From NCBI GenBank assembly GCA_008632985.1, contig QPGO01000040.1:45311-65310 (forward strand): a stretch of 20,000 nt of DNA. Direction: 5' to 3'. This stretch comes from Psammoneis japonica. Taxonomy: Eukaryota. Below are positions 2,924-20,000 of this stretch, piece after piece. Position 1 is the stretch's first letter; each line of letters begins with the position of its first letter. The position numbers were made by a program, and so were the translations under genes. The notes beneath the pieces are model-generated. The model did not search any database. It was not told the origin of the DNA and saw nothing but the letters and a program-made list of their open reading frames with translations.

Positions 2924-3367
2924 ATTTATCGAGTTTGTCTGTCACTTTGGGAAACAGTAGGGTGTTTTGCTCAGGATTCGGTAAGCACTAATCAATAGAG
3001 GAGCTTGTTGTAATAACCGCAGATCATCGACACTTCACAAACATCATAACGACAGCGCATGCAGAAAAAATAGGCGCCGCGACAACATCATGCCGTTTTT
3101 GAGCGAACACACCTCGGCGTAGAAAACATACTGGCTTCTACGATGGTTGCCACACACGTGTTGAAAAGCGCGCGCGGGAAGGAAACTGCGCACCACATTC
3201 CGACTCATTTGACTGCAACACTTTATCTCCAACTTTGACTCGAGCCAACGAGCCGGATGGGCTCTAACTCTATGTATGGTAGATGATAGATGGCAGTGAG
3301 TAGCCTTTCTTTCGAAGCTTTCTTTCTGTAATTGTAATAGTGATACAAGACAAACCAAAATATTACT

Positions 3368-4420
3368 CTAAACAATCCCCAAATCTTCGTGAGTTATTAG
3401 ACTTGAATTCAAGTGACCCACAAAATTCTGTAGCAGCAAAGTCGCGTGGCGATCATCCGTTCTATCGTCGCAGTGGTTGTCGCCATTGTCATTGTACGAT
3501 ACGACGTCAATATCAACAACCGTAATGGCCGTATTGTAACTTAGAAACTTTCGTTTCTTGACAATGGGAATGGGCAATCCCAACACGGCCTGTAGGACCA
3601 TGTCTTTGAAATCTCCATGACACACGAGTGCAATGGTTTTGCTCGTTCGCTCTGTCAAACACGTGGCGGCCATTTGGTAGAAACGATCTGCAACACGTTG
3701 GATTCGTGGAATAGCCATGGCACGTGTTTCCTTGTTGCGATCAACAGGATACCAGCCGTCTTGTGTCACGTCAGGAGGCAACTTGTAATTGGGAAACAGT
3801 TGTGTCATTTTGCTTTTCGATAGCCCGCCTTGTCCGACGCCTTGTCTGTGAATTCCTGAAACTTCATAAATATCCGTCCATACCTCTGGGTCCATGTTTA
3901 GTGCGACGCCAATCGGTTGTGCTGTTCGGAGTGCGCGAAGCATGGGTGACACATAAAGGGCATCAATGTCACCCATGATTGGATTAAAGTCGGAAAAGGA
4001 TTCGTGTGCGGCAAGGTACTGACCACAGGCAAGGGCGTGTTGCCTTCCTCGTGGTGATAGATCCGGGTCGTCGAGACGGTTGTTGCGATAGTAATCAACA
4101 GACTTTGCATTCATGACATTATTTTCGGATTCTCCGTGACGGATAAACAAGACACGGAGTCGGTATAGTGGATAGCCATACTCTGATTTTGTTGGGACAG
4201 ACTCCTTATCATCGCGGTTTGTTCTTGACGTGGTTGTCGTGCTAAACTTGGAAGACGAAGAGGCGGCCAACACATTTCGCGGTCTCGCCAACGACGATAT
4301 CGTTGAGACAATCGCGATAGTAGCAGCGTTCACAAAACGAGACCTCATAAAAGGAGTTGTGGTAAGCTGTCTTGTCGAGTTGTTGACAGAGGGAATGCCT
4401 CGGGATAACAACAACAACAT
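3368..4420 (-). CDS. Histidine phosphatase superfamily / phosphoglycerate mutase-like protein with Ser/Thr/Arg-rich N-terminal targeting-like extension
   Basis: RHG motif (LFIRHGESENN), D-x-x-LS-x-x-G-x-x-x-A, SPMLRALRTA and the C-terminal VCHG motif in a 350-aa ORF. The start codon is uncertain. Confidence 0.9.
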   Translation of the reverse strand: MLLLLSRGIPSVNNSTRQLTTTPFMRSRFVNAATIAIVSTISSLARPRNVLAASSSSKFSTTTTSRTNRDDKESVPTKSEYGYPLYRLRVLFIRHGESENNVMNAKSVDYYRNNRLDDPDLSPRGRQHALACGQYLAAHESFSDFNPIMGDIDALYVSPMLRALRTAQPIGVALNMDPEVWTDIYEVSGIHRQGVGQGGLSKSKMTQLFPNYKLPPDVTQDGWYPVDRNKETRAMAIPRIQRVADRFYQMAATCLTERTSKTIALVCHGDFKDMVLQAVLGLPIPIVKKRKFLSYNTAITVVDIDVVSYNDNGDNHCDDRTDDRHATLLLQNFVGHLNSSLITHEDLGIV

Positions 4421-4489
4421 CGTTGGCTGTTGCTCGAAGTGGTTTTTAGCAAAGATTCAGATGATGCGACGTCGCGTTACGAGTTGTTG

Positions 4490-6870
4490 CGAAATCCAAA
4501 ATTCCAACAAATGGGGATGACGTCACGGAAATCTGATTTGGGCACACGGGATCGCCATCTCCCGCTCGCTCTCCCCAAGCCCAGCCACCACCAGCAGGGA
4601 CGTTCTGCGACCTTTCCACTCTTCCGCTGCTGAAGGCACTTCCGTGCCTCCTTCTGCTGTTCACTTCCGTTCTCAACAGGCTCTCTAACTGTGTGCTTGG
4701 TTCAATCTTTGCCTGAAGCCAGTCCACCTCTCACAACCAGCGCCACAGCCGACCACGCATCGAAGTGCCGTGCTGGCCCTCGAGATTTCCTTCCAGCTTC
4801 AACACAAGTGACAACTTGTCCCAACATGGATTGAAAAAGCAACTGGGCAGCATTTTCTTGGTGAAATTGACGTGTGCTCATGACACTTCTTCAGCGTGCT
4901 GTGTGCTGCTGGCGCCTCTGCTTTTGGCTTGTTCTTGGAGAGCTGCCATCCTCACATTGCTGCCGAGTGAGGGGCTTGTTGATTCTTGATTCCTGTGTGG
5001 CACAATGTCTGTTTCATGTGGGTTGCAGCATGTGCGCCATGTTTCATGGAAGGAGAATGCCAGCTGCACCCTTGTGTCAAGAGATTGCCCAGTGAGTCAG
5101 GTCGCTTCCAGGACCTTCAGTTGGCAACAGATCAGAAATCCCAGTCAATGCCTGTGTCATTCACCAGCGCATGGAGCAACCTTTGTAGCTCCCACCCCAT
5201 CTGCCACACAAAGCACAAACAATGAGCAAACAATGGCATTCAACCACTGCATGAGAGACCTGCTCAGTGTGCATTCCAGAGGTTCAGCCAAACAAGTGGT
5301 CTGTCACATGGCCCACTCTCGTGGCTGGCATCCTTGATCTTGACTTGTTCCAGACTCATGTGCATGAATGTGCAGTCCAAACTTAAGGTGCAATTTTCAA
5401 TGGCCAAAAAACACAATGATCTTCAAATGCATTGTCATGGGCACATGCAGAAAGGTCTCGTGCATGCACTCATGTGTGAGAAACTGAGGATGGACCAAGT
5501 TGTTGATCGCCAAATTGTGCCTTAAGATGAGAGCTCTTTTTTCCGATGAGTGATTTGCAACTGCTTTTGTGTGTTGACAAACAACACATTGATTGTTGTT
5601 CTTGTGCACCAATGTGCTCTCAAATGCGACATGAATGATGTTTCGTCCACTCATTTGAGTGCAAGTTGATCTCAATGGATTGAACAAAACATGCATTGAT
5701 TGACAAGTTTCGGAAGACGCGGAAAGAAATGAAGCTCAGCATGTGCAATGGCATCAACTTCAGACCCTTTTTCACTGTTCCATTGGCATGAACAACTGAC
5801 ACACTTGCACAAGTCCATGTTGTGGAGGAAATGTGCATGAAAATGGAAAAGAAATGTGCTTTCTTGGAGGCAAATTGTGAGTGAATTGAGGCTCAATTGT
5901 TGGTGCTGACAGATTGAATCTTCTTGTGCCATGCTGCAGCCTGCATCAAGCATTTTCATTGTTGTGATGGATGCCACAGACCATGTGAAATGCTGTGGTC
6001 TTCATCATGACATTCAATTTTCCATGAGGTTGAAAAAAGCGGGCTGTCATGGTTGCTGAAAGCCATGGCCGTTTTGGCTGTTTGTTGGCTCGAATTTGCT
6101 CTGTTTGTTTCACTTAAAATCCATTGATGTGATCATTTAAATAAAATGTCAATGATGTTGAACAAAGCATGAAACATTCATTTTTTGTGCAAAATCAGGC
6201 ATGAGCATGCCACCTGAGTCTGGAGCAAGTCTTTTGCCAAAGTGCTGGTGCTGGTCTCCTCGCTCACCCACGATTTTTGACCTCGCACGCTGCATCCCTC
6301 ACAAGCAGATGTTTTTACTGCAGTGTTCATTGGCATCACACTCCAGCATGTGCTGACCTTCCCATGCACAGTGGAGAAGGAGCGGTGCAGTGCCTGTGGA
6401 CAGGCGGCATCAACAGCGCGGTGTCAATCTTGTTTCTTGTGCTTTCTGCTGCGCAGCTGTGGTGCTGGGCTTGCTCCCCCTCCCCCTGCCTCTCTCCACT
6501 GACAAATCATGTGCTTCAAGAGATGAAGTCCATTTTTTCTTTTTTTTCAGCTCTCAGACTGTTGTTCTGCCTTCCCTCTCCCTGCTGCCTCTTTCTTTTG
6601 AGAGCACTCTGCCGCAAAGGAGCTTTGCACGCATGCATGCAAGCACAGCCAGGTGACCTGTGTGTTTCCACTTGGACAAGAATGTTTGTTTTTTCATTCA
6701 CAAGGTGCTGTGTGATGGCCATTCTGGTCCCCGGGTGTGAGCCATCATCCATTCGCTTGGCCAAGAGCGAGAACAGGAAACTTGAGTGACACCTGGAACG
6801 ATTTGGCACGGTGACTCATTCATGTCTGCCCTAATTGTGAATGACGTGAAGGACATCATGACTCACTTAA
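4490..6870 (-). mobile_element. Decayed TE-like/foreign island 1 (TpA- and CpG-depleted) with relic minus-strand coding sequence of unknown family
   Basis: About 10 TpA in ~2.4 kb against normal density in the flanks, the same signature as the transposase-bearing island 2. A minus frame at ~5400-4950 is interrupted only by TGA (likely ex-CGA). No recognisable transposase motif or TIR. Boundaries are approximate. Confidence 0.55.
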
Positions 6871-7324
6871 GGGCGTCGTGACGTGTTTCCGATTCATCAT
6901 TCTTGAAGGTGCGCTCAATCTTCTTGTGAATGACGTTAGAGAGTGTCCCTATTCTTGCGTAAATAATATCAAGAAAATTGAGTGTATGGTTAAGCATAAA
7001 CGATGACACTCTGAGGTCATGATTGGAGTGAAATTCCGTGCACCAAAGTGTCACGCATGAATCCAACCAAATCCAACGCTCGCACCACATCCACGTAGAA
7101 CTCAGTACAAAAGCTACGTAATACTCATGCGGTTGGCGATCCTTTGATCACATTTTTTGCTTTCTCACACCTCAAACTGAGTTGAAACACACGACAACTC
7201 AATCTCCAAGCTATTGTATCGAGACAAGTCCTGCTGAGCAATTCATCGAAACTCTCCAGCGACACTTCCACATACAAACTCAAAAGTGGAGCCTGGAGAA
7301 ATTTCATAATTCATAGAGACAACC

Positions 7325-9126
7325 ATGTGCAACATGACAGCAACATACCGCTCAGGCGAGAAAGAGCCATTGACGTCACTCTCGCAGGAAGAAACGGCTT
7401 TCTCGGCTTGTGCCAACAACAGAACTACTGCATATTCATTAGAGAATAGGAGAGGAAAAGCGCCATACTTGATTGTTACGTTGGTCCCAGCCGTGGCATT
7501 GAGATTGTGCGACTTTAGTTTCAACTATTCCTGGTCCTTTGGGCTCTACTCATGCTTGTCCCTCGTTGTAGCAGCGCTGACCCACATGATTTATCAGCAA
7601 AGAGTGTTGACTCGCTCGCTACTTAGCAAGGTTCCATCCTCTGATAATATCAAGACGGCTACAACAGCTACGATCTCCTCAACAATCAAGAGGATTTCTT
7701 CGAATCAGTGCTGGGAGAGCTTACACGGGAAGACAAGCCATTCCAAGAATCAGCACGTCACTACACTCTCCAATAACGATCCATTTGTTTCTTTGGATGT
7801 CATATCGAAGTTAACATTGTCCGATGTCACGCACTCCTTCTATACGCCAAGGACAAGAATAGCCATCGTTGCGAAGGTACGACGACGAGTGCAGCGTTGG
7901 AGCAAGTCATGACCGCGTTGGACACGTCCGCGTCGAAGTCACGTGGTCCGAATGTGATTGAGCGCAATACGTTGTCCTCGGATGCGTTTGGCGATATGGA
8001 TGCCTTACGGTTCTGTGCCGCGGTTCGAATCTTTGGCGAATGGCGCGTCGTTCGACAAGTTCCTGATGGATACAAGGGCTATGCCGTCGGAATGAACTTG
8101 GGCAAACGAGACATTGTACAAAACCTTGCCAAGATGGAGCATGCGGTACACAACTGGATTGATCACAATAGAAACCGCGACGAAGTCTTGAAAAGCCCGA
8201 GTTTGCGCGATCTTTTAGTGCACGAAGTCAACACCAACGTTCACCATCGGCTTCCGAAGCTCAAGGAAAAGACGGCAGCCATCGGGCTGGTCTGGACGTA
8301 CCGTCAGTTGCAATACCAAACGTGCGTCTACGCCAACATGGTCAATGGAGAATACAACAAAGCTGCGCTGGATGCTTACAAGGAAGTGTACGACAAGTAT
8401 CACGGATGGGCAGTACAAAAGATGTTCAAGTACTCTTTTCAGGGAGCGCCGCCCGAACACGAAATTTATAGGCATATGAACCCTGAGTTGCTACAACAGG
8501 TCACTGACAAAGTGAAGAACGAAAGCACCGTGTTGCTGCGTAGTGCAAGCCTTTCATCGTTACCGGGCTGCAGTTTTGACGACGAGTCGTTCGTGCTTGA
8601 TCAAGAGAGTGATAGCGTCGACTGGGAGATTGTCCCCAACGTCACAGAATCTTCGTTTCTATTTGATTCAGATGACGAGGAAGATTCTGTGGTTAACGAC
8701 AAAGGGAAAGCCGAATCGAAAAAGAATCCTCTTGAAGAGGCTTTGGATCACATTGTTCGAGAAACCAAAAAGTTTGAAAAGAATATGGAGCGTGGATGGA
8801 ATGAATTCGTGTCTTCGATTGTCAGTGTCTTTGATAAAGACCACAAGCAAAAGAGTAGTGGAGCTTCGCATTCTACAAACGAGGAAAGAAGCGATGACAA
8901 AGAAAAATCAGTGGACCAGAGACGCCGAGAGTGTTTTAAGAAGAAGCGTCAAGAACAATCTGTTTCTGAAGATCAAACAGAAGCACTGAATAAAATGATA
9001 TCTACAGAAATGACCAATGGTGCTCACTCGCAAATGAAGCACTATCTCAAAGTCGCTCAGCCTATGATGGATGACTTGCTGAGCATGGTGAAAGAGCTGA
9101 ATATGAACGACCCTACGAAAGTATAG
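7325..9126 (+). CDS. Glycolipid transfer protein (GLTP)-domain protein with N-terminal TM segments, split by an apparent 1-nt frameshift near 7841
   Basis: ORF 7897..9126 has GLTP-like motifs (D-I-x-x-N-x-x-K, TAAIGLVWTYRQLQY, AY-x-EV-x-x-x-YHGWAVQKMF, APP, C-terminal LNMNDP). Its frame is open back to 7777 with no ATG before 7909, and it overlaps ORF 7325..7912, which carries the TM segments. Confidence 0.7.
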
Positions 9127-9683
9127 ATAGAAAGTGATGGATTATGGGTATGTAAATAGTATATATAAACAATAGAATTGCTACGGTTTGCTCATTCATT
9201 CGTCGATGGCCACGTATTTGTCCGTCCTGTTGATGTTGCGTATGCTGAATGTGCTCTATCCTCTCTACGAGTAGAAGTAGAGGTGAGAGGCAAATAATGT
9301 ATGTAGACTCTACCGTAGAGTTGATGGTGGTGGCGTTTCCTTTTAGGTCTCTTGCATGGGTGTTAAATAATCCTGAACAATTATGGAGAAATTTTCTTTT
9401 ACTGTTAAGTAAACAGATTCTCGTTTTTCCGTAAATATTGAGAGATAAATGTCGTCAACGCGAACCCCCATGCGTGTTCGGGGTCCGAATTTCCCACAAA
9501 ACAATAAAGGGACGAAAGCATCGCATCACGCCTCCCACAGTATTCTTCTCGACAAATAATTGAAGCTCTCGAAAAGACGGCACATCTGGTAAGAAGCACG
9601 ACGTGAGCGGTTTCTCTCTTTCTGTGACTTGCCGCTTCTAACGACTTGGTTTGGCCTGTTCGTGGCTACAGTACCCGATTGTA

Positions 9684-11444
9684 ATGAAACGCAGAACTCT
9701 AGAATGCACGGCGTTGGGAACCTGCCTACTTTTTGCTTTTATCTGTGAAGGTGCAAACGCAAAAGAAGATGTAGGAGTAATCGAAGAACCTGATGGTATC
9801 GATGGTTTCGCTACTAACCACGCAAAAAGCTTTGACTTTGGAACAACCAATAGCATTGCTGACGACACGATGGAAACCACGATGAAAGATATCGCCCTAG
9901 CGAGGGACCTTGTTGATGAATCACTGCCCTCCTGGACAGAGAAATATATGGCTGTTGACATTGGAGAATGGATTCAAATGGGACGGAGTATTACCATTGA
10001 TCCCAAAAAAAGGTTCGAAATGGTGGCAATGTCTAGAGATGGAAATCGTATGGTCATTTCAGAGAGTGGCAGATATGGAAAATTTGGGCGGATCCGTGCA
10101 TATCAGTGGAACTCTTTCAAGTCGGACTGGAAGCTAATGGGTCAAATCATCGAGGGAGTATACCACAGTCCTCTAGTCGCCATGTCAGCCGATGGAAAAT
10201 TTATTGTTACTGCTGAGGGACAAGAAGCAGTGCGTGTCTTCAAGTGGCAACGTCAAATGTGGAAACAGGTCGGAGAAAGCATTCCAATGTGGGTGGGTAC
10301 AAGCTACAATAGAGGATACTTTCAGTCAGTGGCAATATCGGATAATGGGCAAACTATTGCAGCTTCAATGTTGAACTATCGCATTAGAGTCCCTGGACAG
10401 GTCAAAGTATTTGACTGGGGAGGATCAAAGTGGAAAGAGAAGGGACACTTGTCCGGAAGCCTAAACAGCCTAGGGACATATGATTCATTCGGGGACAGTA
10501 TCGCAATGTCAGGAGATGGGAATCAATTGGCAATAGGTATTCCCTTTGCTGTAAAATCTGGAAAACGTGTAGGAAAGGCACAAGTCTTGAAGAGGAGGGA
10601 GGGATCATCTTCTTGGGTTCAAAAAGGACAAGACATTTACGGCAAAGGAAAGGACTACGGCTTTGGTAGGTCCATTGCGATATCTCAAAATGGAAGCCGC
10701 GTAATTATTGGTGAAAAGAGACATCGAGAAAGTGGATACGCACGTGTTGTTGAGTGGAACGAATCCAAAAAGCTTTGGAACATGGTAGGAAGCGATATCG
10801 AAGCGGAGTACAATGACGATTTCGGGGAATCAGTTTCAATATCGAGTGATGGAGGGCGAGTAGTTGCGGGCGCCAGAGACTTTGATGAAATGGTTGGCCC
10901 CTCAGGAGCCGGGTTTGCTCGGATGTTTCACTTTGATGGAACCTCATGGCTACAGCTGGGAAATGGATTGTATGGGAGGAAAAAATATAGTGGATTTGGC
11001 GCAGGCGGGGTGTCAATGGCAGGCAGTGGAAATCGTGTGGCAATCTTTTCGGGAAATGCCATTAGTGTTTACAATTTCGTTCCACTCGCCAATGACGCTC
11101 TTGTTGTAGAAATCAACATCAAGCCATTCAAGAAGAACCATGACATCAAAATCAGCAGAGCTCGTAAAGAAGAAACTGTAGGCGTTGCCGTACTTACAAC
11201 CGACGACTTTGACGCCAAAAAGGTAGACGTACAATCCATTCGATTCGGTCCTGATATGGCACAGCCTGTCAGTTGGCTAAAGAAGGATGTCAATTTCGAC
11301 GGTATCAAGGACATTATTCTCGTGTTCAAACTCCACCATACCGGGTTTAGTCCAGGGCGCCAGCAAGCATGCTTGCATGGAGAGCACACATCTGGAGTGG
11401 AATTCAAGGGTTGTCGAATCGTTCGCGTCACCAAGGCAAAGTAG
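9684..11444 (+). CDS. Secreted FG-GAP/integrin-alpha-like beta-propeller protein with C-terminal DxxxDG-loop beta domain, paralog A
   Basis: ATG 9684 is followed by a signal peptide (ALGTCLLFAFICEGANA). About 7 repeats of FGxS(I/V)A(M/I)SxDGxx(L/V)(A/V)(I/V)G ... WxxxG. The C-terminal domain runs VEINIKP...VAVLTTDDFDA...IRFGP...DVNFDGIKD. Intronless. Confidence 0.85.
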   Translation: MKRRTLECTALGTCLLFAFICEGANAKEDVGVIEEPDGIDGFATNHAKSFDFGTTNSIADDTMETTMKDIALARDLVDESLPSWTEKYMAVDIGEWIQMGRSITIDPKKRFEMVAMSRDGNRMVISESGRYGKFGRIRAYQWNSFKSDWKLMGQIIEGVYHSPLVAMSADGKFIVTAEGQEAVRVFKWQRQMWKQVGESIPMWVGTSYNRGYFQSVAISDNGQTIAASMLNYRIRVPGQVKVFDWGGSKWKEKGHLSGSLNSLGTYDSFGDSIAMSGDGNQLAIGIPFAVKSGKRVGKAQVLKRREGSSSWVQKGQDIYGKGKDYGFGRSIAISQNGSRVIIGEKRHRESGYARVVEWNESKKLWNMVGSDIEAEYNDDFGESVSISSDGGRVVAGARDFDEMVGPSGAGFARMFHFDGTSWLQLGNGLYGRKKYSGFGAGGVSMAGSGNRVAIFSGNAISVYNFVPLANDALVVEINIKPFKKNHDIKISRARKEETVGVAVLTTDDFDAKKVDVQSIRFGPDMAQPVSWLKKDVNFDGIKDIILVFKLHHTGFSPGRQQACLHGEHTSGVEFKGCRIVRVTKAK

Positions 11445-11748
11445 TGAGATATTTCGGATACACAAATACCAGGAAACCTTTTAATATATAGACAGTACTT
11501 ACCATTTTTAGGTTGTCGCTGACGAATGCGATGTTGTGCTTCTATATCTTTGAATGTGCCGTGAGCAAGAGTCGAGTTCTTGACTCATTGTTAGAACTCG
11601 TCTCGTTGTGATGTGGAGAGAATAAGTTTACCGCTTTGCGTAACACGTAAACCACACAGAAAGGTGGAACGTAAACGTTTAGAAGCTCTTCACACACCAC
11701 AAGATAAAAATAGCGCCGGATTTCATACGGGAGGTCCACGCAAGCATT

Positions 11749-11895
11749 TTAGTCTTTTGGATGCAACCCAGCATCGCCCAAGTATGGGGATCCAAATGCA
11801 CCCACACGTGCCATGTGTGGATTCTCTTGCATTGCATTTACTTCATTCTCCAACTTGGCAAGCTCCTTGTTGTCGGGGAAAATTTCTTGGGCTCG
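11749..11895 (-). pseudogene. Truncated duplicate of the last ~48 codons of the TM+TPR-like gene
   Basis: Near-identical to 17780-17926 including the stop codon. It is cut off at 11895, where transposon sequence begins. Confidence 0.85.
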
Positions 11896-12870
11896 AAAGC
11901 AACGATGGTGAAGGGTCCGCTTTAAAGAAGTTCAGGGCAGTGACATCATCAGCCGGTGCATCGTCGCGGAGGAAACGCCAAGACGAAGCAACAGTCACTC
12001 CTTTTAACATCAAACCACAAAAAGTCAAAGCCCGAACTGGTTTTAAAGACATTGTTCAGCTGCTGTGTCATGTTCTCACGGTTTGCGATGGAGACGTGGG
12101 AAGCATGACACAACAAACTGGTCCTTTGACGTGGTTTGAGGAATGGTTCCTGTTCTGTGAGTTCATCTGGGGAAGGACTGCGGCAACAATGGAAGCAGCA
12201 GGTGCCATTTTTGAACTCAGCAAGATGTCAAAAATGATTGATGGAAAGCTTGCATCTGTTCTCAAGAACGGCAGAACTGGCCGACTTGTGCTGCACATGA
12301 GGAAGACTTGAAAATGCATGGTGAGAAATGGAATGACAAGCATGGCAAAGATGAGCAACCAGTGCTTTGGGACGACACTGGCAATGATCTGCACACGCCA
12401 TCGGATTCACTCCTGCAGCGAGTGACTTGTTCTGCATGCTGTGGAGGCAACATTGCGAAGGGAGGTGTTTTTGCACAACTTTGTGGTTGGTTGGGGACCA
12501 AGGAGCTACATCCAGGTGCCATGTCTGATTCTGAATGCTTTCAAATGGCTGGTGTTCTTGAAAAACAGAAAAAGTTTCAAGAAGAGGATGGCAGAATCAA
12601 ATTCCTTGATGTGGTGTGGCGACAAGACCAATTTGTGTCACAACCTGAGTTTGCACAGAGTGATCAGAAATTCTCTGCTCGGGAAGTGTTGCACTCTGCA
12701 AGCATTGCAGCTGATTGCTCTGGAAATGAACGAGCAGTCCGTGTTTCTAAATTGTCAGCATGTGTCAAGCGCAGAATGCAAACACACAAGAATCTTGACC
12801 ATTTGTGCAAGGCATGGCTTGCCTGGAGTTGGCAAGCAAATTTTGTGTTTAAACTGGTTCATCAAAAAGT
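11896..12870 (+). pseudogene. DDE_Tnp_4 (ISL2EU/HARBI1-like) transposase pseudogene
   Basis: The motif order matches the family: RTGF; FEEWF (HTH region); WP...ED; VLWDDT (first Asp, 12371); P-S-D-x-x-LQRxT(C)SA(CC)GGNxxKG; PGAMSD; QPxF...F-x-x-x-EVL-x-S-x-x-IA-x-x-(C)-x-x-NERAV (Glu, 12728). Frameshift near 12267. The D(K/R)G second-Asp segment appears deleted near 12610. Confidence 0.8.
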
Positions 12871-13179
12871 TGGTTTATTCAGTTTGTTTCTTGGCAAATC
12901 ACAAAGCGTGTCCGAAATCAAAATGACAATTCTCTGCATGAAGCACCTCATGAGGATGAGGAGTCAATGGCTCCTGCTCTGCTGCAGGGCCTGTTGACAC
13001 AGTGCACCACAGTGCTTGTGATGGAGGCACAGGAAAAAGATTTCATTTGCAGTGCACTTGATGTGTGCCCCAAAATGTTGCAAGCACAGGTGTCCATTCC
13101 AGTCAGAGGGCAGGGACTCAAGTTCAGCAGTGACTCCCACAGAGGGATGTCATGCAACAGATCAGGCTCCAGTTGTCAG

Positions 13180-14055
13180 CAAGAAATTGACAAGTTCAAT
13201 GTTGAAGAAGGTGGTCAATGAAAGTGTTTGGCCACATTGCAAGTTCACAATCTTCGACAGAGAACTGGCGGTGAGAAGAGAGCACATGAAAAGAAGACTT
13301 CTGCAGGAGTCAAGAAGTGCAGCAGCTGCACCGGAGGCACTCTGGGAAGCATGCAAAGAGGTGTTCAGGAAAAAACTCAACCACAAAAGGAGCAATGTGC
13401 AGGATGATGGAAGGAGGAGGATGACAGGCAAGCCAAAATGTGGACGCATTCAAAAGTCATGGACAGGAATGTCTGACAACAAGAGTGTGATTTCCATTGT
13501 TTTCATCAATGCAGCTGCTGCTTTAGAGGGGTCACTGGTTGAGTGCAAAGATTTGGTCCAGGACAGAGTGGACAAAAGCACACACACATGGTTCTTGGAA
13601 ACTGCAGCGCCAACTGTGTCAGGCCAAGTGCAGTTTGGCAGAAGCATGACCAACTTGCTCCAAGAGTGGCTTGCCATTTCTTTGGAGGCCTTTGCTCTGC
13701 TGGTGTGCTTGAGCTGCCATGACAAGGTGGTCAACACATCAGAGAAATTGGGAAAGGACAACAACATTGCAAGGCAAAGAAAGCTGTGGTGGTGGAAGAC
13801 ACTGCACCAGCAAAGTGTGCTGCAATGGCAAAGGGAGAAATGGCTGAAAGGAGCCAAGGATGGAGCAAGGATGAGATCAAGAAGTGCAATGAACTGCACA
13901 AGTGGGTGATGAAAAACCAGGAGGAGAACAAAGGATTCAGTGCATGGCTCAAGGAACAGAGACAAGAGAAGGCAAACTTGCCCAAGGAGGCAGAGAAGAG
14001 CTGCAAAAGGGAGGAGAAGAGGAAGGAGAGAGAGAGGACAGATGGGCAGCATTGA
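13180..14055 (+). pseudogene. Transposon accessory ORF relic (SxEAFALL and GWSxxxIxxxNxL motifs) with one degenerate intron
   Basis: ORF 13052..13909 (VWPHCKF ... FRKKLNHKRSN ... ISLEAFALLV) shifts into ORF 13786..14055 (GWSKDEIKKCNELHKWV). These motifs resemble TE-associated hypothetical proteins of diatoms, from recollection only; the family is not assigned. Candidate intron at 13428-13514. Confidence 0.5.
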
Positions 14056-15287
14056 TGGGAGAGGACCTGCCATTGCTGGCAGCCACTGGCTGCAATGGAG
14101 TGGAAGCAATTGCAGAAGTGGCAACCAACCAAACTGGTGTGTGAGCTCAATTTGTGGCAAGCAACAAAATCCAGAAAACAGAAAAAACAAAAAGGCAAGC
14201 TGTGGCACAATTGACAGTCGAGAAATGTGGCCATTGCAAAGCTGTTGCACATTTAAAGCAGCAGCGCAAATGCATGAAATGCCAAAGGATGATGCAGGCA
14301 AGGATGGTGGATCTCAAGTGGCAAAACAGGTGATGAAGAAACAATGAGCAGCAAATGTCAACAAGGGTTGAGAGCAAAATTGTGGGCAAACATGTTCGCA
14401 CTGCAAAGTGGAGTGAAATTCAGGTTTTAGAAGCTCACGAACTCAATCAGTCACATGTTTTTTTTTGTGCACTCGCCTTCTGATTTTTGAAACAATCAAA
14501 TTTGAAGGAATTCAATGTGCCAAACTGTGCAGAAAACCAGTCTCACACATGATGGATTGCTCATCACTGGGGCTGGAACATGCGGGAGACGGGTTTCAGC
14601 CCCAGGTGGGACTCCGTGTGACATTTGCCCCGCAGAATTCTGTGTGCAAGCTCTGCAGTTCATGCTCTGGCCAATGGACACATTTGTCTTCGACATGAAA
14701 TGAACGACCAAGTTTGTGGCACACATGTCCCTGTTCCTGCTTGAAGTTTTGGACAGCCCGCCTGCCCCGCGCCATGCTCAAGACATTTGAGAATGGTGCA
14801 GAAGAAAAAAATGTCAAAAGTTGTTGAATGGATCGCCCAATGATTGTGCCGCAAAACAGCGCAAAATGTCACCAAAATCACATGGAAATGTGCGTGCGCA
14901 ACATGCGATGCGATTCAAAAAACTGTCGATGTCACAGTTCAGCAGCACGAGGTCCCACCTGGACCTGGAACATGTCAGGAGGGTTGTGGCCACAGTGCAT
15001 GAAGAGCACTCTGCTGACTTGCTCGCAGCGGGCCACACATTGTGGTTGGTTGTGGCAGTGTCAAGAGATGTGACAACCGTGCTGCAAGGACAAAACAAGT
15101 GCTGCCTGGAGCCCTTGCCCTTGTCTGGAGAGATGATGGCCGATGTTGTGTTTTGACATCATTGTGTGTGGATGACAATGAAGCTTGAGATGGCTTGGAA
15201 ACAGATCAGGAGACAAGGTTTTTTTTATGATGGTGACAACAATGCCCAGCGCGATGATGACACCAAAGACACCGATCTGAAATCACG

Positions 15288-15346
15288 AGCTTTTTTTTTA
15301 GCAGAATGTGAGCTAAAAAAGTGGGGGATGACCCCCCCCCCCTTAA
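15288..15346. repeat. Putative transposon terminus: two short inverted repeats and a C-run abutting TTAA
   Basis: ttttttagc (15294-15302) and gctaaaaaa (15312-15320) form an inverted pair. Then ggggg-atga-ccccc, C11 ending at 15342, and TTAA at 15343-15346. This coincides with the compositional boundary. Confidence 0.55.
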
Positions 15347-15364
15347 GCGTCTGATGCGATGTTG

Positions 15365-17926
15365 GCGTTAAATAATGCAGCATCTTAGTGAACAATTAAG
15401 AGGAAACTTTCTTTGGTGTTAAGTAGACAGATCCTTGCTTTCTCCCATAAATGTTGAGAAATAATTATTAGACCATGTCGTCAACGCGAACCCCGAGAAT
15501 TCTGACATGCGAATCATCTCCCACAAAACCAAAAAAAAGGAAAAACATCGCGTCAACAGAGCAGCACTACACAACCTCGTCAACTGGAAATCACAGCGCC
15601 ATAAAATATTCGTCTCTATACAAATCGAAACTCTCGAAAAGACGGCAAATCTGGTAAGAAGCAGGACGTGAGCGGTTGTCTCTTTCTGTGGCTTGCCGCT
15701 TCTAACGACTTGGTTGGACCTTTTCGTCAATGTGGCTACAGCACCAGATAATAATGACACGCAGTACTCTAGAGTACACGGCGTTAGGAGCCTTGATACT
15801 TTTTGCTTTTATCGGTGTAGGTGTAAACGCAAAAGAAAATGTAGGAGTGGCTGAAGATCCTGTCGTGAGAAATAGTTTCGACAGTTTCGCTACTAGCCAC
15901 GCAAAAAGGTTTGACATTGGAACGACCACCAGAATTTCTGACGACACAGTGGACTCCACGAGAAGAAATCTCGGGGACTCTGTTGATGAATCACTGCCTT
16001 CCTCGACAGAGAAATCTACTGCTGTCGACATTGGAGAATGGATTCAAATGGGACGGAGTATTACTACCACACATCCCAAAAAATGGTTCGGAATGATGGC
16101 AATGTCTAGAGATGGCAATCGTATGGCCATTTCAGAGAGTGTCAAAAATGCAAAAATTGGGCGAATCCGTGCATATCAGTGGAACTCTTTCAAGTCGGAC
16201 TGGAAGCTAATGGGTCAAATCATAGAGGGAGAATATAAAAGCCGTCGACCCATGCCTCTACCGGCAGTGGCAATGTCAGCTAATGGAAAATATCTTGTTA
16301 CTGCCGAGGGACTAGAAGTAGTGCGTGTCTTCAAGTGGCAAAGTCAAATGTGGAAACAGGTCGGAGAAAGCATTCCAAGTTGGGTGAGCAACCATAGAGA
16401 TTTCTTCCGGTCAGTAGCAATATCAGATGATGGACAAACTATTGTGGCTTTAATTTCTTTCGACGCCGCTAGAAACCCTGGACAAGTCAAATTGTTTGAC
16501 TGGAGTGGATCCGAATGGAAAGAAAGGGGATCCTTGTTGGAGAGTTTAGACAGCCGCGAGGACATTGGTTTCAGCATCGCAATGTCAGGAGATGGGAATC
16601 AATTGGCAATAGGTATTCCCTTAGCTGTAAAATCTGGAAGAAATGTAGGCAAGGCACAAGTCTTCAAGAGGAGGAAGGGATCATCTTCTTGGGTTCAGAA
16701 AGGACAAGACATTTATGGCAAAGGGAAGGACTACGGCTTTGGTTTATCAATAGCGATATCTCAAAATGGAAGCCGCGTAGTTATTGGTGATCTGAGTGGG
16801 TACGCACGTGTTGTCGAGTGGAACGAGTCCACGAATCATTGGAACATGGTAGGAAATGGTATCGAAGCGGAGTACAAAGATGAATTCGGAGGATCTGTTT
16901 CTATATCGAGTGATGGAGGGCGAGTGGTTGCGGGCGCCAGTGACTTTTATGGAGTGGTTGGCCCCTCAGGAGCCGGGTTTGCTCGGATGTTTCACTTTGA
17001 TGGAACCTCCTGGCTACAGCTGGGAAATGGATTGTACGGGAGGGAAAAATATAGTGGATTTGGCGCAGGCGGGGTGTCAATGGCAGGGAGTGGAAACCGC
17101 GTGGCGATCTTTTCGGGAAATGCCATTAGTGTTTACAATTTTGTTCCACTCGCCAATGACGCTCTTGCTGTAGAAATCAACATCAAGCCATTTAAGAAGA
17201 ACCATGACATCAAAATCAGCAGAGCTCGAAAAGAAGAAACAGTAGGCATTGCCGTACTCACAACCGACAACTTTGACGCCAAAAAAGTAGACGTACAATC
17301 CATTCGATTCGGCCCTGATATGGCACAGCCTGTCAGTTGGCTAAAGAAGGATGTCAATTTCGACGGTATCAAGGACATTATTCTTGTATTCAAACTCCAT
17401 CATACCGGGTTTAGTCCAGGGCGCCAGCAAGCATGCTTGCATGGAGAGCACACATCTGGAGTGCAATTCAGAGGTTGTCGAATCGTTCGCGTCACCAAGG
17501 CAAAGTAGTGAGACATTTCGGAAACGAGAATACCAGGAAAACTTTTAATATTATATACAGTACTTACCATTTAGACATGCACCGAGCAGCAAAGAAAGTT
17601 GTCGCTGACGAATGCGATGTTGTGAAAGAGGCGAGTTCTTGACTCTTCGACAGAACTCGTCTCGGTGTGATATGGAGAGAATATACCGCTTTTCGTAAAA
17701 CGTTTCAGAAGCTCTTCAAAACTCCTCGAGGTTAAACTTGGGTCGTAGGATTTGATACGTGAGGTCCAAGCAAGCATTTTTAGTCTTTTGGATGCAACCC
17801 GGCATCGCCCAAGTATGGGGATCCAAATGCACCCACACGTGCCATGTGAGGATTCTCTTGCATTGCATTCACTTCATTCTCCAACTTGGCAAGCTCCTTG
17901 TTATCGGGGAAAATTTCTTGGGCTCG
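15365..17926 (+). repeat. Tandem segmental duplication, copy 2 (continuous with the intact downstream gene)
   Basis: Homologous to 9360-11895 and continues without a break into the full TPR-like gene. Confidence 0.9.
15754..17508 (+). CDS. Secreted FG-GAP-like beta-propeller protein, paralog B
   Basis: Same architecture as 9684..11444. ATG 15754 is positionally homologous to ATG 9684, and an in-frame upstream ATG at 15730 is possible. Signal peptide ALGALILFAFIGVGVNA. Confidence 0.85.
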   Translation: MTRSTLEYTALGALILFAFIGVGVNAKENVGVAEDPVVRNSFDSFATSHAKRFDIGTTTRISDDTVDSTRRNLGDSVDESLPSSTEKSTAVDIGEWIQMGRSITTTHPKKWFGMMAMSRDGNRMAISESVKNAKIGRIRAYQWNSFKSDWKLMGQIIEGEYKSRRPMPLPAVAMSANGKYLVTAEGLEVVRVFKWQSQMWKQVGESIPSWVSNHRDFFRSVAISDDGQTIVALISFDAARNPGQVKLFDWSGSEWKERGSLLESLDSREDIGFSIAMSGDGNQLAIGIPLAVKSGRNVGKAQVFKRRKGSSSWVQKGQDIYGKGKDYGFGLSIAISQNGSRVVIGDLSGYARVVEWNESTNHWNMVGNGIEAEYKDEFGGSVSISSDGGRVVAGASDFYGVVGPSGAGFARMFHFDGTSWLQLGNGLYGREKYSGFGAGGVSMAGSGNRVAIFSGNAISVYNFVPLANDALAVEINIKPFKKNHDIKISRARKEETVGIAVLTTDNFDAKKVDVQSIRFGPDMAQPVSWLKKDVNFDGIKDIILVFKLHHTGFSPGRQQACLHGEHTSGVQFRGCRIVRVTKAK

Positions 17927-18426
17927 TTCAAAGGCAGCCCGAGCTGCTTGGCAATCTTCAGCTTGGTACAAGAGCAATGTAATGAGACTGAGATGCGATG
18001 GTAGGTAGGATTCGTCACGATATATGGATACCTCCAACATTCGTGATGCCTTTTCAACACTAGGCACATCACTATCTCCCTGCTTTAAGCAACCCAAAGC
18101 CTCGCTGAGATTGCAAAATTGATTGATTCAATGAAAGAAAGAGTGAGCATGGGATTAAAAAGTACGAGAAAAAAAAGCAAACACAAGTACAAACACGAAA
18201 ATTCGACTTACTCGTGAAGCTGCTCTGCTGATTTTGGATACACAATGTAATAGATTCGTCTACAAAACTCATACAGCACTGTTAGAAACAGCAAGACCAC
18301 CACACCCGGCAACAATACCGTTGTGGTGAGTTCCCAAAGAAATTCAGGCAAGTGAGAGATTGCAATTTCCAACTCGGCGGAAAGGTTGCGCAGTGCGTAC
18401 ACTAGCATTTTCGTTCGACCGCCCAT
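17780..18426 (-). CDS. Two-exon single-TM protein with a TPR-like helical C-terminus (exons 18426-18212 and 18104-17780)
   Basis: Donor GA|GTAAGT at 18211 and a pyrimidine-rich acceptor TCTCAG| at 18105 join ORFs 18208..18561 and 17780..18097 in frame (..EQLH-D-EALGCLK..). TM segment VLLPGVVVLLFLTVLY; TPR-like AARAAFERAQEIFPDNKEL. Confidence 0.75.
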
Positions 18427-18934
18427 GATGATCCTTTGATTTCTACTCTGGATTTTAGAGATGTATATCCGGTCGTTGACCGAGTTGGATCTTTCTGAGC
18501 CAGTCGATCTTTCTGCAACCTTACTATTTGTACAGTCGTACGTGCGGGACGCTGAGCACACCCAGATGCCCTATGAGTGCCAATTCTATCAATAGCTTTC
18601 CAAAAGAACGGACGCTGCTGCAAACAACAACAAACTGCTTCAGCATGCCAAAGATTGCGCGTTCGTTCGTTCGGTCATGATAGATGCGCGCGCCCGACAT
18701 TTGCATTCCCGCGCAAATTCGTGATTGGTATCTATGATCTTCGTCTCTGGAGTTATCTCAAATGAGTGATCGCGAATTGGGTCGTGCAGAGGCGCGAGCA
18801 TGATCTTGCCAAAAATTTCGTGACTCAAAACGCGGACTATTTCCCTGTTTGTGCCTTCTCGTTTAGTGTGTCTCATCTCACAATAAGTCATTCTATCGCC
18901 AACAAGCACGTACTATTCCAACAAGACACACAGC

Positions 18935-19675
18935 ATGGTGGTACGCATCATACACAACTCTCTTGAGCTACCCATAACAGTCCATGACACCAAGAACAAG
19001 TCAGCCGCTGCTGTTGCTCGTACAAGTAGCGGTTCAACCTCGTTTCGTCAATCCAACTACAAGCACAGCAATGATTTTCAAAAAGAAAATTATTCCAATC
19101 ACTCCGTAACGACTCGCCCTTACCATCGTCGTTATCGAGTCCATTTTGAAGACTCCTCCGAAACTCCTACTCGACAGGAATTGCCATCAAGAACCGACGC
19201 CACTGTTCACGACGACGACGAATTTGATAGATTTCACGATGAATTCTTTCGACAATTGCGTCATGAACGACGACAAGAGCTTCTTCATCTACAAAACCTA
19301 CCACAAGACAAACCTGGTCGTCGTGTCTGCTTTGCTGAAAAGCTCGTTTCGGATGTTTGGGAAAGACCCAAAACACTTCCAGAGGAAAAGGCTGCTCTGT
19401 TTTACTCGACGCACGAAATTCGAGAATTTCGAAACGACTATTGCCGACAGATACGTCAAGAAGCATGCCAAGACGAAATGCATCTTTCCAACCTTTTCAT
19501 TGCCATGGCTACAACGGATTTTTCATGGATTCGAAAAATGTTTACCTTTTGTATTGCAGAAACAACAGCCGTCCTTGTGAGTTACGGCACATCCTTTCTC
19601 ATGGACCATACATTTTGCTCCAAAAAGTGCGAATCATTGCCATTGTGGGAAGATAATGAATATACCATAGAATAG
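18935..19675 (+). CDS. Hypothetical protein with RVxF motifs (RVHF; RVCF...RPKT...LFYS..EI..FR)
   Basis: Clean 246-aa ATG-initiated ORF, divergent from the TPR-like gene and followed by an AT-rich 3' region. Confidence 0.7.
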   Translation: MVVRIIHNSLELPITVHDTKNKSAAAVARTSSGSTSFRQSNYKHSNDFQKENYSNHSVTTRPYHRRYRVHFEDSSETPTRQELPSRTDATVHDDDEFDRFHDEFFRQLRHERRQELLHLQNLPQDKPGRRVCFAEKLVSDVWERPKTLPEEKAALFYSTHEIREFRNDYCRQIRQEACQDEMHLSNLFIAMATTDFSWIRKMFTFCIAETTAVLVSYGTSFLMDHTFCSKKCESLPLWEDNEYTIE

Positions 19676-20000
19676 AATTGAATCGACTATAGAGAATGCA
19701 TAAAGGGGGGCAATAATCAATGCAGCTCTCTGTAGGGTAATCGAATGTACTGAGTATTCGAGCAGATTTTGACTTTTCAGAGATGTGAAAAGCTTGCTCA
19801 CCTCTCTCTGCGGAGTTACCATTCTCTCCAAGTGGCAATAAGATCATGTCTAGAGTTACAAATCAATTCAATTCCACTAAATTAGTACTGGGACTCTCTC
19901 TGGTATCAAATGAATGTACGAATATGCGGCCATCGTTCATTATTTCTGTTGATGACTTTGCAAGTTGGAGAGCGTAGAGTTGGCGGGGTGGCGCAAATTG

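Follow-up and report, generated by a model that had tools for sequence, protein, structure and literature searches.

Repeated and transposon-derived DNA purged of TpA: a probable footprint of locally targeted hypermutation

Introduction

How can one dinucleotide vanish almost entirely from a piece of chromosome and remain ordinary in the DNA on either side? The question is raised by a stretch of 20,000 nucleotides from Psammoneis japonica (GenBank assembly GCA_008632985.1, contig QPGO01000040.1, positions 45,311 to 65,310; here called the window and numbered 1-20,000), in which two blocks, B (11896-15342, 3,447 bp) and A (4490-6870, 2,381 bp), have lost nearly all their 5'-TA-3' steps (TpA) and are set among three flanking stretches of together 14,172 bp. 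An earlier note on this DNA, made from its letters alone, had proposed that a repeat- or heterochromatin-targeted mutator converts TpA to TpG (CpA on the other strand) in transposon DNA, and knew of no described pathway that removes TpA. Such a pathway has since been described, as hypermutation restricted to TpA in the chlorarachniophyte Bigelowiella natans (Mettrop et al. 2026, bioRxiv 10.64898/2026.01.13.699255, main text). In the window, the loss of TpA is a derived, polarised change to TpG or CpA that is confined to mobile-element DNA and independent of copy number, and a process of the B. natans kind, acting beside the decay of methylated CpG, is its probable cause.

Results

Two blocks depleted of TpA and CpG

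TpA occurs 13 times in block B and 10 times in block A, exactly as had been counted by hand in the earlier note, against 145.9 and 100.8 expected at the flank rate of 600 in 14,172 bp (Poisson P = 1e-45 and 5.5e-31). This amounts to a TpA frequency of 0.0038-0.0042 and to an observed-to-expected ratio (O/E) of 0.06 in either block, as opposed to 0.56, 0.61 and 0.59 in the three flanks, which are TpA-richer as had been claimed. The abundance of TpG and CpA in the blocks is equally borne out, with O/E of 1.7-1.8 against 1.14-1.19 in the flanks (counts in Table 1). CpG is depleted as well, a feature little stressed earlier: 64 CpG are found in B where 186.8 are expected at the flank rate, and 54 in A where 129.0 are expected (flank O/E 1.08, 1.00 and 0.97). 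G+C content is 0.45-0.48 in blocks and flanks alike, and AA, AT and TT stand at O/E 0.83-1.30 in the blocks; GC-biased gene conversion was rejected on these two grounds.

Runs free of TpA reach 798 bp in B (the next two being 730 and 648 bp) and 592 bp in A (the next two being 516 and 500 bp); in the rest of the window none is longer than 123 bp. At the block edges the change takes no more than a few tens of bases, again in agreement with the sharp boundaries of the earlier description: on the left of B, the match to a host paralogue ends exactly at 11895, and on the right, ordinary TpA spacing is back from 15344. Within B, TpA loss is uniform whereas CpG loss is graded (O/E 0.03-0.17 in mid-block, 13000-14250, and 0.4-0.6 toward both ends), so that the two processes differ in rate, reach or age.

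The composition also shapes gene prediction, many long overlapping open reading frames (ORFs) being present on both strands of 12068-14301 (e.g., 13450-14301 minus, 283 aa, and 13731-14252 minus, 173 aa). Most of the long ORFs of block B must be spurious, since DNA free of TpA can hold no TAA or TAG, and gene finders may annotate them as Cys/His-rich, Tyr-free 'proteins'.

TpA loss is derived, not ancestral

Block B carries the remains of a transposase gene (Table 1), for which a protein search returned 10 relatives (E 1.6e-58 to 3.4e-18, 41-59% identity). At the 126 codons conserved among these (at least 70% agreement among at least four relatives), none of eight Tyr codons (TAY) is retained, six being now Cys (TGY), one His (CAT) and one Phe; Arg is retained at six of ten, the losses being two His, one Gln and one Cys; and Trp (10/10), Phe (6/6), Gln (7/7) and Glu (7/7) are kept throughout. 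The invariant TYSAYYAGN of the relatives reads TCSACCGGN in the window. Classed by the single step that links the window codon to the consensus residue, the 29 changed codons comprise 11 TA>TG/CA, 8 CG>CA/TG, 2 other transitions, 5 transversions and 3 multi-step changes; the TA and CG classes thus account for 19/29 of the changed codons, and for 11/26 and 8/26, respectively, of the single-step ones.

The DNA of the relatives tells the same story. Against 10 non-redundant metagenome contigs carrying relatives, 12 consensus TA dinucleotides (those found in at least 60% of at least four sequences) correspond in the window to TG (8), CA (2), TT (1) or CT (1) and never to TA, and GG and TG are kept at 30/36 and 26/36 of the aligned sites. 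The homologous transposase DNA of the relatives has normal TpA in all 12 of the metagenome contigs that carry them (L001-L012; TA O/E 0.45-0.82, 15-35 TpA each), together with intact Tyr codons, and no 500-bp window with TA O/E below 0.20 was found in these contigs, which are 1-15 kb long with G+C of 0.35-0.54. On the evidence of these sequences, the transposase family is widespread among uncultured organisms, and unpurged there. The high-copy repeat at the 3' end of B may not have been born TpA-free either, as weakly and informally indicated by an inspection by eye, in which three loose-end strings from other copies (near 14837-14874) have TA at four sites where the window has TG or CA.

These comparisons with relatives show an excess of TA>TG/CA of the kind that the earlier note had asked of a polarised spectrum. 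The note had named equally TpA-poor intact copies of the element as a refutation; the relatives of the transposase have ordinary TpA. The loss of TpA is a derived, polarised change to TpG or CpA, confined to mobile-element DNA.

The polarised changes in 11889-12859 lean to one strand (TA>TG 10 vs TA>CA 1; CG>CA 7 vs CG>TG 1). Much of this lean is a detection bias, third-position changes being silent; a lean within codons remains (Tyr 6:1 for Cys vs His, Arg 3:1 for His/Gln vs Cys), in counts too small to weigh.

TTAA looks spared among the surviving TpA

The context of the 23 surviving TpA was compared with that of the flanks, whose composition serves as an estimate of the original blocks. TTAA accounts for 10 of the 23 survivors but for only 21 of the 600 flank TpA (p = 1.5e-8), about 8.6 TTAA being expected originally, and its density is 1.72/kb in the blocks and 1.48/kb in the flanks. 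Survivors lie in TTTA or TAAA in 16 of 23 cases, as against 89 of 600 in the flanks (p = 1.3e-8), and those with neither a 5' T nor a 3' A number two where our own arithmetic (388/600 flank TpA scaled to 5,828 bp) gives about 160. Conversely, ATAT and GTAC occur at 0/kb in the blocks versus 4.09 and 3.03/kb in the flanks, and GTGC and ATGT, into which these would change, show a two- to threefold enrichment in the blocks. TTAA looks spared, and TpA in T/A runs partly so. The sparing of TTAA offers a candidate extended motif and a testable fingerprint that any candidate enzyme must reproduce.

TpA loss is confined to element DNA and does not follow duplication

The transposase part of B has a read depth of 25-36, that of unique DNA (at an 85% likeness threshold), yet it is purged. 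The opposite case is provided by a 2.5-kb host tandem duplication (units 1 and 2 in Table 1; 87.3% identity by MAFFT), which keeps normal TpA and serves as an internal control: TA in unit 1 faces TG or CA in unit 2 at 16 sites and the reverse is true at 14, and no spread of TpA loss was found into this host duplicate, which flanks B on both sides. Targeting does not follow repeat homology, because a single-copy relic has been purged and a 2.5-kb host duplication left untouched; the 'repeat-targeted' half of the original proposal is accordingly contradicted here. Three mutually unrelated sequences (block A, the Harbinger relic and the high-copy repeat) are purged, and both strands equally so; a runs test found no strand-coordinated clusters of TG versus CA (z -0.79 and +0.83). 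The decay of CpG within the same blocks suggests that these are, or were, methylated silent chromatin, a state by which they would be recognised.

The duplication consists of a secreted FG-GAP-repeat gene and the end of a minus-strand neighbour; B sits exactly where unit 1 gives way to unit 2, and in unit 1 the copy of this neighbour breaks off at 11895. In the window, at least six ORFs (246-974 aa) are uninterrupted and have intact domains, and the flank genes with recognised domains include a histidine phosphatase, a GLTP-domain protein and the two tandem FG-GAP paralogues.

What the blocks are made of

Blocks A and B have no sequence in common (no blastn match between them within the window) and so do not represent copies of a single family, contrary to the single transposable-element family that had been implied for both. 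B is a composite of a Harbinger-type relic, a second element gene and a high-copy repeat of 0.75 kb (Table 1).

The transposase is 5'-truncated, its relatives having 43-96 extra N-terminal residues without counterpart in the window; it is broken by a frameshift near 12266-12269, and its core is short of 10 codons (a 30-bp deletion) at the site of the relatives' conserved LDRGYRS stretch. The Pfam model PF13359 (DDE_Tnp_4) scores the window ORF at 18.9 bits (E 0.0012) against a cut-off of 24.8, scores the relative P0003 at 24.3 bits, and is a precomputed assignment for 4 of the 10 relatives. These sequence matches indicate clear homology to a family lying at the edge of the DDE_Tnp_4 model. The second element gene has 13 weak relatives (best E 1.1e-13), with no Pfam family in its window ORF or in five of these relatives. 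It is too weakly conserved for a count of Tyr: three columns have at least two Tyr among the relatives, and the window has His, Phe and Trp there.

The core, the 41-59% identical relatives and the second gene downstream recall PIF/Harbinger transposons, from which the present copy differs as a dead relic, with its truncated 5' end, two frameshifts and core deletion. No pair of terminal inverted repeats emerged from a repeat search of the window and no target-site duplication, of 3 bp or otherwise, was found, the 5' end of the element being missing.

At the 3' end of B, summed contig depth rises to 18,369 (bin 14008-14674) and 42,106 (bin 14675-15341), versus about 28-60 in the unique flanks, and 23 contigs have loose ends at 14588. 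Block A has a repeated core (Table 1) and no gene that could be recognised: none of its 39 translated pieces has a credible Pfam hit (one chance match to Hepcidin, E 0.019), and it shows no similarity to the 12 fetched metagenome contigs. The earlier term 'transposon DNA' therefore suits B, with its Harbinger-type relic and high-copy repeat, and goes too far for A, which is repeated DNA. Pfam scans of the window contain no reverse transcriptase, no Rfam family or tRNA was found in the window, and neither block has tandem repeats of note. The 3' end of B (15322-15347) has a run of 13 C immediately before a CTTAAG site, and a short GGGGATGAC word is shared by this end of B and the left end of A (4509-4525).

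Table 1. Blocks, element remains and host duplication in the window. O/E, observed-to-expected ratio of a dinucleotide.
Feature	Position	Strand	Description or basis
Block B	11896..15342	no strand	TpA-purged, CpG-poor mobile-element DNA (a composite); TA 13 in 3,447 bp (O/E 0.06), CG 64 (0.33), TG 381 (1.80), CA 359 (1.73)
Block A	4490..6870	no strand	TpA-purged, CpG-poor, sequence unrelated to B; TA 10 in 2,381 bp (O/E 0.06), CG 54 (0.39), TG 284 (1.81), CA 238 (1.71)
Transposase pseudogene, N-terminal part, first reading frame	11889..12266	+	tblastn matches of relatives P0003, P0004, P0008, P0010
Transposase pseudogene, DDE_Tnp_4 (Harbinger-type) core	12269..12859	+	Pfam PF13359 and 10 relatives
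Second element gene, no Pfam family	13049..14034	+	frameshift near 13786; tblastn matches in two frames
Very high-copy repeat, 3' end of B	14588..15341	no strand	TpA-purged (3 TA); contig depth
Repeated core of block A	5337..6670	no strand	summed contig depth 1375 and 1121 (two bins) vs about 53 alongside
Host tandem duplicate unit 1 (FG-GAP gene and neighbour), normal TpA, internal control	9374..11895	+	blastn, 83.5% over 2403 bp to 15607-17926
Host tandem duplicate unit 2, normal TpA, internal control	15389..17926	+	blastn, MAFFT

Support from sequencing reads

Public read contigs were compared with the window through exact 31-mers. Contigs of run X1, whose library type is not on record, match 11842-13252 (depth 33.7) and 13223-14626 (depth 40.7) with no differences and at a depth like that of the unique flanks, and further contigs span the edges at 6870 and 15342. 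We take such a depth of exact 31-mers to imply accurate reads. The concern, voiced earlier, that TpG and CpA might be miscalled TpA on modified DNA is thus answered in so far as read contigs reproduce the blocks exactly at 34-41x, with the reservation that these reads may not be independent of the assembly. In runs X2 and X3 most of both blocks lacks coverage, and no RNA data set was listed among the public runs that contain the stretch, which has no bearing on expression.

Elsewhere in the window, at 1-2300, contigs of X1 and X2 differ from the assembly at many sites in a Gln-rich gene of 974 aa (e.g., 31-103 other letters per record of 0.6-1 kb, with small indels). They suggest a divergent allele or a close paralogue, and the organism may therefore be a heterozygous diploid.

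Comparison with Bigelowiella natans

The closest precedent comes from mutation-accumulation lines of B. natans, for which the main text of Mettrop et al. (2026) reports two integrated viral regions that mutate at about 6e-7 per site per generation, some 1000-fold over background, with 230 of 231 mutations being A>G or T>C and all of them falling on TpA (TpA>TpG or CpA). The same text lists 324 predicted coding sequences with a mean TpA frequency of 0.0018, enriched in 'DDE superfamily endonuclease' and reverse-transcriptase domains, and 124 genomic clusters poor in TpA and rich in CpA and TpG; a DNA adenine deaminase resembling ADAT2 is put forward there as an untested proposal.

As far as the preprint's main text goes, the likeness to the window is close. 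In both, TpA changes to TpG or CpA on either strand, in foreign or mobile DNA only, next to normal neighbours and also in single-copy DNA; in both, the long-term footprint consists of TpA-free blocks rich in CpA and TpG that include coding sequences with DDE domains, the mean TpA frequency of 0.0018 comparing with 0.0038-0.0042 here. By this analogy, the blocks look like B. natans-type clusters at saturation. The window also has features on which the preprint's main text, which does not deal with CpG, TTAA, sequence context beyond TpA or other species, is silent: co-depletion of CpG, sparing of TTAA, polarity read residue by residue from a Harbinger relic, and targeting that is independent of repeat homology.

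The two hosts appear, on indirect evidence, to be distinct. B. natans genes are rich in introns (8 per gene on average; Table 1 of PMC13746701), in contrast to the intronless genes of the window. Two flank proteins have their best matches, at 54% and 62% identity, in unnamed read assemblies, with no identical or near-identical entry in a protein collection that covers annotated public genomes, and their sole named homologue is from the diatom Epithemia clementina (39% identity), a lead towards a diatom-like host. Protein-atlas look-ups yielded no lineage signal that could be used. Literature searches, to which subscription journals were mostly closed, returned neither a second report of TpA-purged elements nor any for diatoms.

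Discussion

The window shows what became of the DNA, and the agent has to be argued from the pattern. In the explanation that we consider probable, A and B would be dead mobile-element insertions rewritten in place by two context-specific transition processes. The first would be a TpA-specific A:T>G:C change on either strand (TpA>TpG or CpA) driven near to saturation, with TTAA spared and T/A runs partly spared; the second would be the ordinary decay of CpG to TpG or CpA expected for 5-methylcytosine. The first process would be of the same kind as the locally targeted hypermutation of foreign DNA measured in B. natans, and would be aimed at silenced or foreign chromatin and not at sequence duplication. 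It would destroy Tyr codons, signals containing TA and the element's own ends, so that the element could not revive. The earlier idea of a mutator from TpA to TpG or CpA thus survives as a derived, polarised change in element DNA beside CpG decay, and a dedicated defence enzyme, which one window by itself cannot demonstrate, would be the further step.

As to chemistry, our first choice is an enzyme that would deaminate the adenine of 5'-TA-3' in DNA, the product being copied as G in the following round of replication. Enzymes of the ADAT/ADAR type have adenines after U as their natural targets. Taken by itself, we put this chemistry at somewhat below an even chance.

The same targeted process might instead modify the thymine. 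T modification prefers TpA in some protists, and 5-hydroxymethyl-uracil (5hmU) and 5-formyl-uracil mispair with G. A dioxygenase of the TET/JBP type could then oxidise T at TpA to these bases and fix T>C, and TpA being self-complementary, the pattern cannot separate A>G from T>C. The within-codon changes at CpG and TpA lean, in small numbers, to the same strand, a lean that one pyrimidine-directed process working on the minus strand would explain. In a dinoflagellate, the 5hmU made by a TET/JBP enzyme is described as concentrated on repeats and as silencing transposable elements (PMC11572971). Since the base-resolution map of 5hmU in Breviolum minutum, as presented in PMC11071213, is without a sequence motif, and the runs test here is without strand-coordinated clustering, we regard the thymine route as a minor contender, rather unlikely but well worth keeping in view.

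A dedicated mutator may not be needed at all if methylated, compacted and unexpressed DNA has a context-dependent bias of spontaneous mutation and repair that slowly removes CpG and TpA. Both pyrimidine-purine steps that lie one transition from CA/TG are indeed depleted in the same blocks, and the relics are old enough to have acquired frameshifts and a deletion. However, the removal of about 95% of TpA with AA, AT and TT left near expectation would need an extreme rate specific to TpA, and other transitions make up only 2 of the 26 single-step changes at conserved codons, so general decay has been modest. The intact TTAA next to vanished ATAT and GTAC points to sequence recognition, and the B. 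natans rate, as given in the preprint's main text, not only exceeds background about 1000-fold but differs between lines. Slow passive bias therefore seems to us a poor candidate.

Poorer still is an artefact of sequencing or base calling, in which true TA (and CG) would carry modified bases read as TG or CA. It draws on the sole run that holds the stretch being of unrecorded library type and possibly the assembly's own data; it is contradicted by the exact 31-mer contigs at the depth of the unique flanks, and by the frameshift and 30-bp deletion of the transposase, which mark a gene in true decay. Moreover, if a modified base were consistently read as a different one, the next round of replication would make a real mutation of it. 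We hold this to be very improbable.

Slightly less credible again is an intrinsic composition, by which avoidance of TpA and CpG would belong to the elements themselves or to the foreign source, for instance a virus, from which they came. Joint suppression of CpG and UpA with an excess of UpG and CpA is on record for viruses, including many RNA viruses (as described in PMC3829696 and PMC2707012). The transposase relatives nonetheless have normal TpA in 12/12 cases, the lowest O/E being 0.45 against 0.06 here; Tyr residues invariant in the catalytic core are now Cys or His, so that the protein in its present form cannot have worked; and three unrelated sequences share the signature, with edges that coincide with host DNA.

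Least credible of all is hyperediting of double-stranded element RNA from A to inosine by an ADAR-type enzyme, followed by reverse transcription and reintegration, which would draw on the preference of ADAR for a 5' U, giving UA>UG (bioRxiv 10.64898/2026.01.13.699255, main text), but is at odds with an identified element that is a DNA transposon without an RNA copy step, with a truncated relic lying exactly against host DNA, and with purging that is near complete and equal on both strands.

Several points weigh against in-situ hypermutation of the B. natans kind. One window can reveal neither an enzyme nor a base modification nor ongoing mutation, so the process may be an ancient one that no longer operates. 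In B. natans, according to the preprint's main text, the set of viral and transposon-like coding sequences is on average not depleted of TpA, and the hypermutated regions have essentially no excess of GC>AT, whereas the blocks here are also CpG-depleted (8/26 changes), so the two cases may not be identical; in our reading, the CpG part of the spectrum is a second, separate process. The TTAA rule is drawn from 23 survivors and an original composition estimated from the flanks, and a mobile origin of block A from copy depth, with no gene recognised in it. Lastly, run X1 may be the assembly's own library, which makes the read check supportive and not independent.

Other known systems resemble the proposed one in part. 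Repeat-induced point mutation in fungi is likewise a dinucleotide-specific, defence-like transition process that ruins mobile elements in place; it creates TpA from CpA, however, whereas here TpA is destroyed and CpA enriched 1.7-fold, and it needs duplicated sequence, whereas here a single-copy relic was hit and a 2.5-kb duplication spared. Deamination of 5-methylcytosine accounts for the CpG part (CG O/E 0.33-0.39; Arg to His, Gln or Cys) but cannot remove TpA. Restriction and editing by deaminases (APOBEC on retroelement cDNA, ADAR on double-stranded RNA, ADAT2/3 on DNA) share context-specific deamination directed against selfish nucleic acids, with the differences that APOBEC produces C>T and that ADAR needs RNA. 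We know of no demonstrated DNA adenine deaminase aimed at chromosomal elements. Action of ADAT2/3 on DNA is cited in the main text of the preprint (10.64898/2026.01.13.699255).

TpA-targeted hypermutation is otherwise described in one preprint and one organism (10.64898/2026.01.13.699255, main text). The window adds a near-saturated example with polarity at the level of single bases, probably in a different lineage. It also provides evidence for DNA transposons as substrates, against duplication as the trigger, and for an overlap of the process with CpG-decayed, probably methylated DNA. Beyond the preprint, the sparing of TTAA, the coupling to CpG decay and the independence from copy number are worth following.

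More tentatively, and with the odds leaning against so general a statement, TpA hypermutation could be a widespread genome defence of protists, found here in a diatom-like host and guided by silent or methylated chromatin and not by repeat homology. Its enzyme would then have a readable fingerprint, with activity at TA, none at TTAA and less in T/A runs. If this were true, a comparison of the gene sets of both hosts would identify the first natural DNA editor of adenine (or thymine) directed against chromosomal parasites, and a natural, sequence-specific A:T>G:C editor of DNA would concern research on genome defence and on base editing alike.

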